Part shown: positions 849-40,355 of the stretch, in pieces
Layout of the letters: each line of letters begins with the position of its first letter
How positions within the stretch are numbered: position 1 is the first letter of the stretch
Origin: Candidatus Sungbacteria bacterium RIFCSPLOWO2_01_FULL_54_21
Lineage (GTDB): Bacteria; Patescibacteriota; Minisyncoccia; Sungbacterales; HO2-52-23
Length of the DNA: 44,547 nucleotides
Assembly (NCBI GenBank): GCA_001820725.1
Contig: MHQR01000037.1
Coordinates: 1 to 44,547, forward strand
Direction: 5' to 3'
The notes under the pieces: generated by a model
What the model was told of the DNA's origin: nothing
The model's database searches: none
Seen by the model: only the letters and a program-made list of their open reading frames with translations
Program-made: the position numbers and the translations under genes

Positions 849-1580
849 ATGTTTATGGCAATAGAAACGACTTTGCAGGGGATTGGACTTACCGCAAAAG
901 AAGGAGCGGTGTATTTGGCGGCGCTTGAATTGGGGCAGGCACCGGTATTGAGAATTGCCCATAAAGCAGGCATCAAAAGGCCTACGGCGTATGTGATATT
1001 GAACGCTTTGCGGGAGAAGGGTTTCATTGAAGTTATCCCGAAAGGCACAACAACGCTGTATCAGGCAGTTGATCCGGAAAAAATTGTCCGCGGGTTTGAT
1101 GAAAAAGTTTCAGCGTTTAATGTCGCTCTGCCCGAATTGAAGTCATTGCACAATGCCGCTCCTGGAAAGCCGCGCGTGCGTTTTTATGAGGGCAAAAAGA
1201 GTATTATGGCGTTGTACGAAAAGGAGATTTTCAATGCGCACGAGATTCTTGCATTGGTTGACATACGGACATTGCGTTCCATGATGTCCCGGGATGAGCT
1301 TGATGGGTTGACGCACAGCATGAAAGCAACCGGCGGCGCAATCCGTGAATTCATGGAGGATTCGCCGGAGGCGCGGGAGTATCTCGCAGAGAAAAACCGT
1401 CTGGCGCTGGGCGAGACAAAGTTTTTACCGCATGGTACGCATTTTGGCGTAGATATTTTGGTGTACGATCATACGGTTGCGATGATTTCGCCCAAGACGC
1501 TCATCGCGGTGGTAACGGAGGATGCGGCCATAAGCGGCGCCCAGCGCCAACTCCTGGAATCATTATGGACATCCCTATAG
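849..1580 (+). CDS. TrmB-family transcriptional regulator (probable start 855)
   Basis: N-terminal wHTH 'GLTAKEGAVYLAALELG...IKRPTAYVIL..L..KGFI' and 'PRVRFYEG' typical of TrmB proteins. Confidence 0.85.
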   Translation: MFMAIETTLQGIGLTAKEGAVYLAALELGQAPVLRIAHKAGIKRPTAYVILNALREKGFIEVIPKGTTTLYQAVDPEKIVRGFDEKVSAFNVALPELKSLHNAAPGKPRVRFYEGKKSIMALYEKEIFNAHEILALVDIRTLRSMMSRDELDGLTHSMKATGGAIREFMEDSPEAREYLAEKNRLALGETKFLPHGTHFGVDILVYDHTVAMISPKTLIAVVTEDAAISGAQRQLLESLWTSL

Positions 1581-37670: not shown

Positions 37671-37997
37671 ATGTCCTCACTTTTTTCAAAATCACTCTCC
37701 CTGTGCACCGGCTTTCGCGCTTCTTCGTTCAAACGCAACACGGTCATTTTTAGCATCGTCGTGTTTCTGGGGATGTTGGCGCTGGCGTTGTTCGCCATAG
37801 ACGGATATGCGCTGTATCTCTCGCACTTTGCCGAACCCGCGCCCGTACTGCCACTGCGCAATACGCCCCAGCTCTCTACCCAGGATATTGACGGCACGCT
37901 TAAACTCCTCGACGAACGGGAGAAAAAGATGCGAGCATTGTTCGGTGAAGAAATAAAACTACCCTCGGAGGGAATCGAACCCCCATCAAGACCTTAG
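37671..37997 (+). CDS. small membrane protein; 3' end overlaps tRNA-Arg antisense
   Basis: Single TM; last gene of pilMNO2 run. Confidence 0.6.
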   Translation: MSSLFSKSLSLCTGFRASSFKRNTVIFSIVVFLGMLALALFAIDGYALYLSHFAEPAPVLPLRNTPQLSTQDIDGTLKLLDEREKKMRALFGEEIKLPSEGIEPPSRP

Positions 37998-38031
37998 AAG
38001 AGTCCTGCTTTATCCATTAAGCTACGAGGGC
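37960..38031 (-). tRNA. tRNA-Arg(UCU)
   Basis: GCCCTCG/CGAGGGT, GGACT-CTTCTAA-GGTCT, GGGGG-TTCGATT-CCCTC. Confidence 0.92.
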
Positions 38032-38333
38032 TTTGTTCTGCCAAAACACTGGAGCTGTATATACGTCTTTCGTCTATGGCAATTAGCGCAACGAATTTCG
38101 CACTTTTTCATCTCTTTCTCCAAGGCATTCCAAGAGTAATGTCCTGACAACATTTTCGAAATTGACTTGAATTTTTTCTGCGGAATGCTGTGGTCAAATT
38201 CAAGAACTATAGGATCTCTTTCTCCGCAATCAACACATGCCTTTGCAGATAAAAATGCCAACAATCTTCCCCGTATTCTGATACGGTGTCTTTTTTGGGC
38301 GGCGTAAAGGTCTTCTCGACGTTTGTAGGGCAT
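38022..38333 (-). CDS. HNH endonuclease-like protein ending inside tRNA-Arg
   Basis: 'CVDCG...LEFDH...KCEIRCANCH' zinc-finger HNH; ATG 6 nt after TATAAT. Confidence 0.8.
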   Translation of the reverse strand: MPYKRREDLYAAQKRHRIRIRGRLLAFLSAKACVDCGERDPIVLEFDHSIPQKKFKSISKMLSGHYSWNALEKEMKKCEIRCANCHRRKTYIQLQCFGRTKPS

Positions 38334-38393
38334 GTCAGGATTATATCGCACGATTCTAACCCTGTCTATGACCATATGCGTCAGAGGCGAATA

Positions 38394-39695
38394 TTATTTT
38401 CTGAAGTATTCTCTCAATTTTTCCCGCGGGACTTCTTTCTGCTCGCGGGTTCTGGCGTTTTTGATGCTCACGGTTCCTCTCTTTTGTTCCTCCTCACCGC
38501 GAATAATGACGTACGCCATTTCTTTTTTCAGCGCGTACGCAAGCTGTGCCTGAAAAGAGAGGTCATCGCCGAGATAGATGGAGCAGGGGATGCCCGAAGA
38601 ACGCACTTCCTGCGCCATTGTCAGATATTCCGCTTCGGCGTTGGGAATGAGGGCGAGAACGAGCGCTCCGGATGAGGAGCGCTCGGCTCCAGATGAGCGC
38701 GTGGTCGCGGCGGGTTTGATATCGAGCCGTTCGAGTCCCGCGATCAGGCGGTCTACGCCGAGTGATACGCCGACAGCCGGTATTTTCTGCCCGGTAAAAG
38801 ACATGACCAGGTCATCATACCTGCCGCCGCCAAAGACCGAGCCGATTTCTTGGACATCCGTGAGGATCGTCTCAAACACGGGGCCGGTGTAGTACGACAG
38901 GCCGCGCACCAGCGAGCGGTCAATGCGCCAGTAGTTCTCCTCAATGCCCATCGCGTTGAGTGCCGCGGCAATCTCGGCGAGCGTGCCGATTGTTTCCGGT
39001 GGAGAAGCAAGGAACGCCATAATTTTTTCAGTCGGCTCTTTGCCGAATTCTTTTTGTAATTCGTCGGCGATGCCAGATTTTCCGATTTTGTCCAGTTTAT
39101 CAATGATGCGCAAAGCCGCCCAGAGCTGTTCTGGAGGAAATCCGGCGAGAACGGGAAGTACCTCCAATTCTTTGCGGTCGGCGATCTTGATGATGAATTT
39201 TTCAATGCCGAGCGCGCGGAGCGTCGCATACATCACGGCAACAATTTCGGCGTCTGCAGATGGCGTGCCGGCGCCGACAATATCCGCATCCGCCTGTGTG
39301 AATTCGCGGTATCTGCCGGCCTGCTGGCGCTCGCCCCTCCACACGCGGCCGATTTCGTAGCGCTTGAAGGGACGGGGAATGTCGGGGTTGGCGGCGACAA
39401 ACCGCGCGAGCGGTACCGTGAGATCGAAACGAAGGGACGTGTCGCTGGTCTCCTCTTTGTCCTGTGATCCGCGCACGTTGAAGATAATCTTTTGCGAATC
39501 CTCCTCGCCTCCGGTCAATACTTCGGTGCGTTGCACCGCGCTCGTTTCCAACGGCTCAAAGCCGAAACTCTCAAATGTCCGGCGCGCCGTATCCAGAATC
39601 CATTGTTTTACCCGCGCATCGCGAGGCGCATAGTCGCGAAACCCGCCCGGAAGATCTGGTTTTACTCTCTCTTTCAGTGGATTGTTTTCGGTCAT
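38394..39695 (-). CDS. hisS: histidine-tRNA ligase
   Basis: 'GFRDY', 'LRFDLTVP', 'GRYREFTQ', 'RGLSYYTG', 'GGGRYD'. Confidence 0.96.
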   Translation of the reverse strand: MTENNPLKERVKPDLPGGFRDYAPRDARVKQWILDTARRTFESFGFEPLETSAVQRTEVLTGGEEDSQKIIFNVRGSQDKEETSDTSLRFDLTVPLARFVAANPDIPRPFKRYEIGRVWRGERQQAGRYREFTQADADIVGAGTPSADAEIVAVMYATLRALGIEKFIIKIADRKELEVLPVLAGFPPEQLWAALRIIDKLDKIGKSGIADELQKEFGKEPTEKIMAFLASPPETIGTLAEIAAALNAMGIEENYWRIDRSLVRGLSYYTGPVFETILTDVQEIGSVFGGGRYDDLVMSFTGQKIPAVGVSLGVDRLIAGLERLDIKPAATTRSSGAERSSSGALVLALIPNAEAEYLTMAQEVRSSGIPCSIYLGDDLSFQAQLAYALKKEMAYVIIRGEEEQKRGTVSIKNARTREQKEVPREKLREYFRK

Positions 39696-39739
39696 TGCCT
39701 GTACGTTAGCATGTAATATATACGGGTTCAATTCCGCGC

Positions 39740-39764
39740 AAAATGAAACCCCTCGTGAGAGGGG
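39740..39764 (-). terminator. attenuator terminator
   Basis: CCCCTC-TCAC-GAGGGG-TTTCATTTT. Confidence 0.8.
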
Positions 39765-39801
39765 GCTGTCTTGATGCCTTGGTAAAATCGGGAAAGAAAT
39801 T

Positions 39802-39876
39802 TCAAGACGTCAACAGAACCCTCTCACGCGAGAGGATAAGCGTATGATGATGTCTTGCTGAAAAGCGATAGGCCAT
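39802..39876 (-). CDS. His leader peptide MAYRFSARHHHTLILSRERVLLTS
   Basis: ATG 39876 to TGA 39802; CATCATCAT at 39852-39844; frame is open to another ATG at 39981. Confidence 0.75.
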   Translation of the reverse strand: MAYRFSARHHHTLILSRERVLLTS

Positions 39877-39880
39877 AACT

Positions 39881-40006
39881 TTATTTGCGCGGGCGAGAAT
39901 CTGACACAATAACGATTGTGCCAAAAATAACAATGATAGCCAATAGTCCGAGTAAAAACAAGTTAAGGGGAGTGGAGACATGAGTTTTTAGCGGCCATGC
40001 CAGCAT
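39881..40006 (-). CDS. small single-TM peptide (start uncertain)
   Basis: LFLLGLLAIIVIFGTIVIV followed by a basic tail. Confidence 0.4.
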   Translation of the reverse strand: MLAWPLKTHVSTPLNLFLLGLLAIIVIFGTIVIVSDSRPRK

Positions 40007-40033
40007 AATACGCGTATCGTCCTGACTTGTCAA
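40005..40033 (-). promoter_or_regulatory. sigma70 promoter of the hisS unit
   Basis: TTGACA (40033-40028), 17-nt spacer, TATTAT (40010-40005). Confidence 0.7.
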
Positions 40034-40052
40034 GGGAGGGAAAGGCGGTTTA

Positions 40053-40190
40053 TTGCCGAGCGAGTGAGAGAAGAGAAAACATCCGTTTTCTCTTCCGAGC
40101 GAGCGATGGCAACAAAGGGTCAATACCCCGCGCCTTGGCGCGGGGGAGGAGCCGCAACGGCGGCTTCCTCCATGGCGGGGCTTGCCCCGC
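40053..40190. other. cluster of GC-rich hairpins
   Basis: gaagagaaaac/gttttctcttc, ccccgcgcc/ggcgcgggg, ggaggagccg/cggcttcctcc, gcgggg/ccccgc. Confidence 0.55.
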
Positions 40191-40222
40191 GGTCGTAATA
40201 CCCTTTATAATGCAATCGTCAT

Positions 40223-40294
40223 GGTGCCCATAGCTTAGTGGCAAAGCACCGCCCTGTGGAGGCGGCCACGAGAGTTCAATTCTCTCTGGGCACC
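40223..40294 (+). tRNA. tRNA-His(GUG) with encoded G-1
   Basis: G-GTGCCCA/TGGGCAC-C, CCGCC-CTGTGGA-GGCGG. Confidence 0.93.
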
Positions 40295-40355
40295 CATTCA
40301 ATAATGAGATTGCCTGTGGATTGTGCGCTCGGCTGGAGCGTGCGATACTGCACCT

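Follow-up and report, generated by a model that had tools for sequence, protein, structure and literature searches.

A conserved histidine-codon leader before hisS in a family of Patescibacteria, with the architecture of a ribosome-mediated transcription attenuator

The contig MHQR01000037.1 of Candidatus Sungbacteria bacterium RIFCSPLOWO2_01_FULL_54_21 (genome G000; 767 kb in 37 contigs, completeness 99.6%) was analyzed over positions 1 to 44,547, the 44,547-nucleotide stretch referred to below as the window. On its minus strand, between positions 39876 and 39740 and directly before the gene hisS, lies a 24-codon open reading frame (ORF) containing three consecutive His codons, followed by mutually exclusive helices and an intrinsic terminator. 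This element is probably a ribosome-mediated leader-peptide transcription attenuator that senses the supply of histidyl-tRNA. A preliminary description of the same DNA had proposed a ribosome-dependent histidine attenuator, and this proposal is now well supported in silico, since the frame, the three His codons and the helices are conserved and a ribosome sets the antiterminating pairing of segments 2 and 3 in 10 of 10 complete elements. The anatomy of the element, its conservation and its switching in silico are observations made on the sequences of G000, of related genomes (designated G001 and so on) and of two metagenome contigs, MG40 and MG42. A role as the controller of hisS in G000 is plausible, and would be shared with a proximal promoter, P2.

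The region 39300-40300 was read on the minus strand, its ORFs were listed, and all leader elements are numbered on that strand; the positions first assigned to the leader, the segments and the terminator all hold between 39876 and 39740. The leader ORF, which encodes MAYRFSARHHHTLILSRERVLLTS and ends with TGA, runs from the ATG at 39876 to the stop codon at 39804-39802, with homologues elsewhere in the family, and the putative sensor, the codons CAT CAT CAT, occupies 39852-39844. Folding places these codons in the stem of one long 5' hairpin in 10 of 10 sequences (z-scores -1.0 to -6.5), a feature absent from the preliminary description. In this hairpin, AGA-CAU-CAU-CAU and the next two codons pair with GGUUGCG-UUGAUGUCUU, the strand bearing the stop codon. 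Its base, P0, joins CAAGACAUCA (39848..39857, Arg and His codons) to 39812-39803, whereas its tip, CCUCUC:GAGAGG, is helix P1 (-9.7 kcal/mol), the 5' arm of which is the apical part of segment 1 (CCTCTC, 39835-39830), starting 8 nucleotides (nt) past the last His codon. Segment 2 (CGTGAGAGGG, 39828-39819; RNA form 2a, CGUGAGAGGG) can pair with segment 1 or with segment 3b, and segment 2b (UGACGUCUUGA, 39802..39812), which holds the leader stop codon, can pair with the His-codon region of P0 or with segment 3a (GGCAUCAAGAC, 39768..39778), identified by folding as the lower antiterminator strand. Segment 3 (CCCTCTCACG, 39763-39754; RNA form 3b, CCCUCUCACG) pairs with 2a in the antiterminator or with segment 4 in the terminator. 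The entire length of segment 2 finds its complement in segment 3 (GGCAUCAAnAnAACCCCCUCUC), and GTCTTGA (39808-39802) is complementary to TCAAGAC (39774-39768). The intrinsic terminator CCCCTC-TCAC-GAGGGG (39764-39749, -15.7 kcal/mol), listed by the terminator scan, is directly followed by the U-run TTTCATTTT (RNA UUUCAUUUU, 39748-39740). The hisS gene (38394..39695, minus strand, 433 residues; TIGR00442, 343.5 bits for a cut-off of 286.75) starts on the same strand 45 nt past the terminator end, and is the only hisS-grade match in the G000 genome.

The three pairings 1:2, 2:3 and 3:4 are all present in 10 of 10 complete elements. The terminator helix 3:4 amounts to -15.7 to -21.6 kcal/mol in these ten, each time with a U-run, and the 2:3 duplex to -24.6 to -40.0 kcal/mol (z-scores -3.2 to -6.8; 0 or 1 of 200 shuffles reaching the same value). 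In G000, the 2:3 duplex reaches -35.0 kcal/mol compared with -17.7 +/- 3.6 for shuffled versions of segment 3, none of 200 being equal. Helix P1 plus the terminator, taken together, are nearly iso-energetic with the 2:3 form. The region as a whole also folds better than its shuffles, whether over 146 nt (-42.3 kcal/mol, z-score -2.69; 2 of 200 equal) or over 311 nt (z-score -4.35; 0 of 100 equal).

The element occurs in 10 of the 36 genomes of this family of Patescibacteria (Candidate Phyla Radiation, CPR) and in the two metagenome contigs, and is single-copy per genome. The hisS loci were sought in 41 relatives, a match was obtained in 39, and the upstream DNA was inspected. The 12 sequences retained come from the ten genomes, which belong to seven genera, and from MG40 and MG42; ten of them (G000, G001, G003, G009, G012, G022, G023, G043, G048 and MG42) are complete elements, leaving out G050 and MG40. 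Conserved His runs upstream of hisS in relatives had been put forward as a check, and it was borne out: the His run, the frame and the helices are kept in the 12 sequences, with His-related genes downstream. A strict pattern of the element is present in 6 of the 36 family genomes, compared with none for a reversed control, and the covariance model R1 reports one strong copy (81-146 bits) in nine of them, adding G043, G009 and G048, as well as, in the tenth (G050), a copy truncated at the end of a contig. The 26 genomes from four further families of the order contain no match of comparable strength to R1, and in 150 sampled genomes of the class other than G000 the model returns a single weak match (39.7 bits). 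When 185,579 species genomes were scanned for the exact pattern, nine stretches were returned, of which five are real, all from metagenome-assembled CPR genomes, and four (L033, L034, L035 and L039), lying inside coding sequence and lacking the terminator, were judged to be chance. The same type of scan in metagenomes returned four stretches, all real, the new ones being MG40 and MG42. The element is thus family-restricted among the genomes searched.

Several other matches were set aside. The R1 match in G027 (27.2 bits) consists of the terminator alone, without a His run, and that at G000:C14:9055-9131 (21.9 bits) is an unrelated ORF with an MMM run and a terminator. R1 matches on the reverse strand at the same loci are a product of the palindromic helices; the alignment A5 held such matches and was left out of the counts, as was an RNAalifold run on three sequences that misaligned the terminator. 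Two weak R1 matches have a layout of their own: at L059 (G010:C1:256314-256445, 28.7 bits) and L083 (G152:C85:2396-2534, 39.7 bits), HHH or HH forms the C-terminal tail of a longer ORF, YerC/TrpR-like by eye (…TTIARVSKWL…GGY…), and this His-rich tail is followed by similar hairpins and a terminator. The mini-leader may be derived from, or fused to, the end of a YerC/TrpR-like gene, as in this layout. At the metagenome locus L040 (1845-2015, minus strand), the leader shares an identical 5' half with L042 and lacks segments 3 and 4, and hisS comes after a promoter-like TTGCTG-17-TACTCT-6-ATG; L040 represents either an attenuator in decay or a chimeric assembly.

The genes found behind the leader point in the same direction across rearrangements. 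The next gene is hisS in four of the ten complete elements (G000, G022, G023 and G048), which belong to four genera; in G022 and G023, where the leader also lies directly before hisS, the hisS genes are 58-59% identical. In three others (G001, G003 and G012) the leader lies ~1 kb upstream of hisS, and a divergent HisG-family gene stands between the two (46-55 bits, which passes in Pfam and lies below the TIGR00070 cut-off). In G009 the next gene is a homologue of this HisG-like gene (BLASTP E-value 4e-24), and in MG42 and G043 the next genes have no known family. A hisS or HisG-family gene hence follows 8 of the 10 complete elements, and no other argument for a putative His-responsive function weighs as much as this recurrent link to His-related genes.

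Several features argue for translation of the leader ORF, whose start, HHH and stop are kept despite divergent N-terminal codons. Each of the 12 sequences has an ATG in frame with HHH, located 21-33 nt upstream of the first His codon, and a stop codon after HHH; the codons preceding Arg-His-His-His diverge, yet the frame stays open. The His codons are exclusively CAT or CAC, the third one being CAC in G012, MG42/MG40 and G050. The peptide after HHH is mostly …LSRERVALM, but a 1-nt deletion in G048 and G050 changes it (…FSCERGLH) while the helices are kept, so the constraint bears on the RNA in the 3' part of the leader and on the codons in the His run. In 10 of 11 sequences, the first base of the stop codon falls 1-12 nt past the point at which the UUGAUG core of segment 2b starts. 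In G000, the leader is preceded by a small hydrophobic ORF of 41 residues (…TPLNLFLLGLLAIIVIFGT…, 39881..40006, minus strand) whose TAA lies 4 nt before the leader ATG, and by a promoter-like site, promoter P1 (TTGACA-17-TATTAT, 40033-40005, minus strand; 11 of 12 matches in the promoter scan), located upstream of both. Small ORFs of this type are also present in G001, G003 and G048, where they end 1-4 nt short of the leader ATG, and in MG42, where the distance is 37 nt; this suggests that the small hydrophobic ORF is translationally coupled into the leader. Its true start is uncertain because its ATG overlaps the -10 box of promoter P1. In G022, G023, G043, G009 and G012, a TTGACA promoter homologous to promoter P1 stands immediately before the leader ATG.

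The helices are also conserved as pairs of strands. In the 10-sequence alignment, 85.6% of the cells of the 1:2 pairing (P0 and helix P1) are paired, compared with 39-53% in slid controls, and its covariation score is 0.133 versus 0.082 (3 of 500 shuffles). The cells of helix P1 alone are 96.7% paired, with a C-G to U-A change in two sequences, located at the base of the helix in G022 and G048. The antiterminator cells are 88.8% paired, compared with 44-60% in slid controls, and its eighth 2b:3a pair shows a C-G to U-A compensation in G001 and MG42. P0 reads AAGAC:GUCUU in G023 and CAGAC:GUCUG in G012, a further compensation, and the 7-base-pair 2b:3a pairing GUCUUGA:UCAAGAC is specific to G000, both strands differing from those of G003. 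As about ten related sequences are available, this covariation is supportive rather than a proof. The expectation of covarying helices in relatives is borne out only in part: the helices are conserved and show single compensations, but the covariation is weak and for 2:3 does not exceed that of shuffles.

Folding of the alternative structures had likewise been proposed, and it favors the switch. The case judged more relevant is that of the nascent RNA, cut just after segment 3b and folded with a ribosome masked on the first or the third His codon: the full 2:3 form is then obtained in 10 of 10 truncated RNAs, while without the ribosome 1:2 is kept and segment 3 stays free in 6 of 10.

The mechanism that we infer comprises translation of the leader, stalling on its His codons and an effect on hisS mRNA, and would operate as follows. 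Transcription would start at promoter P1 and proceed through the small hydrophobic ORF into the 24-codon leader, whose Arg-His-His-His codons would provide the 5' strand of the 1:2 hairpin (P0, a middle helix and the apical helix P1), with segment 2, bearing the leader stop codon, as its 3' strand. When His-tRNA is ample, the ribosome would reach the stop codon and cover 2b, or later leave and let 1:2 re-form; segment 3 would then pair with segment 4, and the RNA polymerase would terminate at 39748-39740. Under a shortage of His-tRNA, the ribosome would stall on CAU CAU CAU and keep the 5' strand open, the emerging segment 3 would pair with segment 2 (2b:3a first, then 2a:3b), and segment 4, left without a partner, would let transcription continue into hisS. 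In G000, the attenuator would most likely provide a starvation-induced increment over a basal level due to P2. In sister species, the same switch would gate the HisG-like gene placed before hisS.

A number of results weigh against this mechanism or restrict it. The covariation of the antiterminator is not above that of shuffles (130 of 500), the helices being mostly invariant and the sequences related. The truncated RNAs of G000, G023, G043 and G048 favor 2:3 even without a ribosome, so termination in these four must depend on the order of folding or on a ribosome at the stop codon over 2b. In minimum-energy folds of full-length RNA with a ribosome on the His codons, the terminator is kept in three of seven cases (G022, G023 and MG42); the other four (G000, G003, G001 and G012) do form 2:3, but the uncovered segment 1 then pairs with segment 4, and the resulting long 1:4 hairpin still abuts the U-run. 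The preliminary description had placed segment 1 within the footprint of the stalled ribosome. The 8-nt spacing on which this relied is correct, but with CCUCUC starting 11 nt past the first base of the third His codon, a standard footprint reaches no further than 1-3 nt into it; the stall would hence open chiefly P0 and the middle helix rather than the tip. The leader ORF lacks a Shine-Dalgarno (SD) motif in G000, and hisS has no clear one for translation from a read-through transcript. The latter is no obstacle by itself in G000, because SD-like motifs are not enriched genome-wide (97 versus a background of 85 among 1044 ORFs from crude gene calls). With the same crude calls, a TTG…TAnnnT box ends 5-9 nt before the first ATG of 46 ORFs, compared with nine in a shifted control, and G000 may rely largely on leaderless or SD-independent initiation.

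The most serious of these points is the promoter-like site P2, which stands between the terminator and the hisS ATG and has the geometry of the leaderless hisS promoters of the family. It comprises TTGAAC (39731-39726), a 17-nt spacer, TG (39711-39710) and TAACGT (39708-39703), 7 nt from the ATG on the minus strand, and matches the TGcTAACGT previously noticed at that distance. P2 was not listed by the promoter scan and its -10 box matches 3 of 6 positions. Among 25 loci of relatives examined, including those without the leader element, most have TTGnnn-17-TAnnnT 6-7 nt before the hisS start, and the hisS mRNA is therefore probably leaderless in this family. As P2 lies after the terminator, any read-through of the attenuator would add to a basal level of hisS. 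It may even be that hisS is transcribed mostly from P2, a circumstance that the preliminary description had itself named as damaging to its claim that the leader controls hisS; that claim is only partly supported.

If we assume that P2 alone serves hisS, the leader could be a relic, an attenuator of a lost HisG-like gene that now mainly ends the transcript of the small ORF and leaves hisS unregulated. The family-typical arrangement of P2, TTGnnn-17-(TG)n-TAnnnT located 6-7 nt before the ATG, agrees with this, as do G001, G003 and G012, in which the leader precedes the HisG-like gene, which has a strong GGAGG, and hisS, located further on, is preceded by a hairpin and by a -10-like box of its own. 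G000 has no HisG, and MG40 retains the 5' half of a leader without segments 3 and 4 before hisS. We nevertheless regard a relic as unlikely, since the G000 leader is fully intact (frame, HHH, P0, helix P1, 2:3 and terminator), a leader directly before hisS recurs in the four genera of G000, G022, G023 and G048, and a polymerase that reads through will necessarily reach hisS, which starts 45 nt further on the same strand. In addition, the 2b:3a pairing peculiar to G000, with both strands unlike those of G003, suggests continued selection on the switch.

It is very improbable that the HHH ORF and the hydrophobic ORF instead encode functional micro-proteins, for example metal-binding ones, with the hairpins as their terminator. 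The conserved start and stop of the ORF and the recurrence of LSRERVALM in several sequences would fit such genes, but the frameshift of G048 and G050 replaces the peptide after HHH while the helices persist, the N-terminal part is not conserved, and both the segment repeats (1 and 3; 2 and 4) and the linkage to hisS or HisG-like genes would be left unexplained. Little credit can be given, likewise, to a riboswitch independent of translation, in which the ORF would be incidental and the helices would be set by uncharged tRNA-His, as in a T-box, or by a His-binding protein. A CAU codon could in principle serve as a specifier, and the hisS gene of Firmicutes is T-box-controlled (PMC2965389). Rfam analysis, at the gathering threshold for the whole window and at E-values up to 10 with permissive filters for 39600-40300, reports only tRNAs, so that the leader belongs neither to the T-box riboswitches (RF00230) nor to His_leader (RF00514), and no other Rfam family matches. 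The element, ~140 nt long, is also too short for a T-box Stem I plus antiterminator, and translation is favored by the ATG and stop that all 12 sequences keep in frame while their N-terminal codons diverge. A chance resemblance without function is hardly credible for an element conserved across seven genera at 81-146 bits, single-copy and always placed before a small gene set, whose region folds and 2:3 duplex stand out from shuffle controls.

A leader-peptide attenuator of histidyl-tRNA supply would belong to a classical type. The his and trp attenuators of enterobacteria combine a leader ORF with a codon run, exclusive 1:2, 2:3 and 3:4 helices, a terminator and ribosome stalling, and the anatomy and in silico switching described here agree with the earlier suggestion that the same logic applies. 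As in hisL, a short ORF with a His run is followed by exclusive helices and an intrinsic terminator, with stalling here predicted from the sequence. In contrast to hisL, the leader contains three His codons instead of seven and is not matched by RF00514; it stands before hisS or an orphan HisG-like gene rather than a biosynthetic operon, in a host devoid of the pathway; and it is leaderless or coupled to a small upstream ORF, with a second promoter after the terminator. The E. coli pheST operon provides a case of a synthetase operon controlled by a leader peptide (pheM) with many residues of the cognate amino acid. Both leaders stand before synthetase genes, but pheST responds to Phe instead of His, belongs to Proteobacteria and has no sequence relation to the present leader. 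The T-box of Firmicutes hisS (RF00230) follows the same logic, more HisRS being made by antitermination when tRNA-His is uncharged, but T-boxes bind the tRNA directly and need no translation, and none matches here.

Closer in its target is the His leader peptide predicted by Naville & Gautheret 2010 (PMC2965389) in bacilli, which stands upstream of a hisS paralogue (hisS*) and of hisZ, the main hisS of Firmicutes carrying a T-box. Both leaders comprise a short ORF with His codons and a premature terminator before a gene of the HisRS family; the bacilli leader differs in its phylum, in its unrelated sequence and in preceding paralogues, whereas the present one precedes the only hisS of its genome. 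Full-text literature searches, judged from abstracts, returned no described leader-peptide attenuator in Patescibacteria/CPR, and this is the first one we could find for CPR as far as these searches went. The novelty lies in the phylum and the sequence family, not in the mechanism, which is classical, nor in the idea of a His leader on genes of the hisS family, which had been put forward for bacilli (PMC2965389).

The gene content of G000 fits a sensor of external histidine. None of HisG, HisA/HisF, histidinol dehydrogenase (HisD) and imidazoleglycerol-phosphate dehydratase (IGPD) was found in the genome, which is 99.6% complete, while each of these searches was positive in 14 of 14 control genomes. 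G000 is therefore very probably a His auxotroph, consistent with the probable amino-acid-auxotrophic symbiont first envisaged. In the window, a tRNA-His gene (GTG; 40224-40295, plus strand) lies just upstream and divergent from the leader-hisS unit, as previously reported. On the other side, just 3' of hisS, a 117-residue ORF (38022-38375, minus strand) with a CxxC…H…CxxCH spacing, HNH-endonuclease-like by eye, adjoins a tRNA-Arg gene (37960-38031).

The HisG-family genes behind the leader (L002:1235-1972, minus strand; L003:2869-3627, minus; L014:939-1667, minus; L057:1684-2298, plus) deserve a comment of their own. In G001, G003 and G012, HisA/F, HisD and IGPD were not found, and the HisG-like product is an orphan ATP-phosphoribosyltransferase-like protein adjoining the only HisRS. 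HisZ is itself a paralogue of HisRS. In G009, the His leader and its HisG-like gene lie on another contig than hisS; the latter is preceded on contig C47 (3570-6587, minus strand; L006) by hisD (550.9 bits) and by a HAD phosphatase with a CxCRKP motif, of the HisB-N/GmhB type by eye. These two genes would represent the last steps of His synthesis only, possibly for the salvage of histidinol or histidinol phosphate. The genes without a known family encode a 424-residue protein on a metagenome contig (L042:1650-2921, plus strand; a weak ATP-grasp match, E-value 0.28) and, in G043, a 234-residue protein (L056:783-1484, minus strand) followed by a DUF6282 protein (L056:3-695, minus strand). Pfam and NCBIfam analysis of the downstream proteins of this kind, behind the His leader and the Trp leader described below, reports no family except DUF6282 and a weak GNAT match. 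The 424-residue, 234-residue and DUF6282 proteins are candidate His-responsive gene products.

A genome-wide scan of G000 for leaders with a run of three identical residues and a terminator returned 78 candidates, mostly noise, among which only HHH and WWW seemed genuine; the FFF, LLL, III, T-rich and MMM candidates lie inside coding sequence or have no convincing downstream gene. The WWW leader, with the ORF MISAYLSAKIATWWWTLHTAQSPHLAIR, is located on contig C20 (~1105-1275, plus strand; L080:206-375) and has a promoter, the repeated motif GGACUUUGC / GCAAAGUCC / GGACUUUGC and a terminator; its fold has a z-score of -3.74. It is conserved, with its WWW, in G001 and G003, and precedes a 356-residue protein without Pfam or NCBIfam family. 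This leader is a candidate for a second leader-peptide attenuator with the same design as the His leader, and makes ribosome-mediated attenuation in this lineage more credible.

Gene regulation in CPR/Patescibacteria is, to our knowledge, almost unexplored. A conserved attenuator would mean that ultra-small auxotrophic bacteria sense their amino-acid supply via tRNA charging and depend on the coupling of transcription with translation, and the His leader would mark a small His-responsive gene set, the orphan HisG-like gene and the family-less proteins among them, with candidates for histidine uptake or handling. A more tentative idea, for which the odds are rather less than even, is that the family runs a few ribosome-mediated attenuators, for His and Trp, reading host-supplied amino acids, and that the gated genes of unknown family serve acquisition or salvage functions. 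If so, the genes gated would be a synthetase, an orphan HisG-like protein of genomes devoid of the His pathway and family-less proteins (356 residues, 424 residues, and 234 residues with DUF6282), the latter would represent undescribed amino-acid acquisition or salvage functions of episymbionts, and the leaders would provide a handle to find them. It would also constitute evidence for transcription-translation coupling operating in CPR bacteria.

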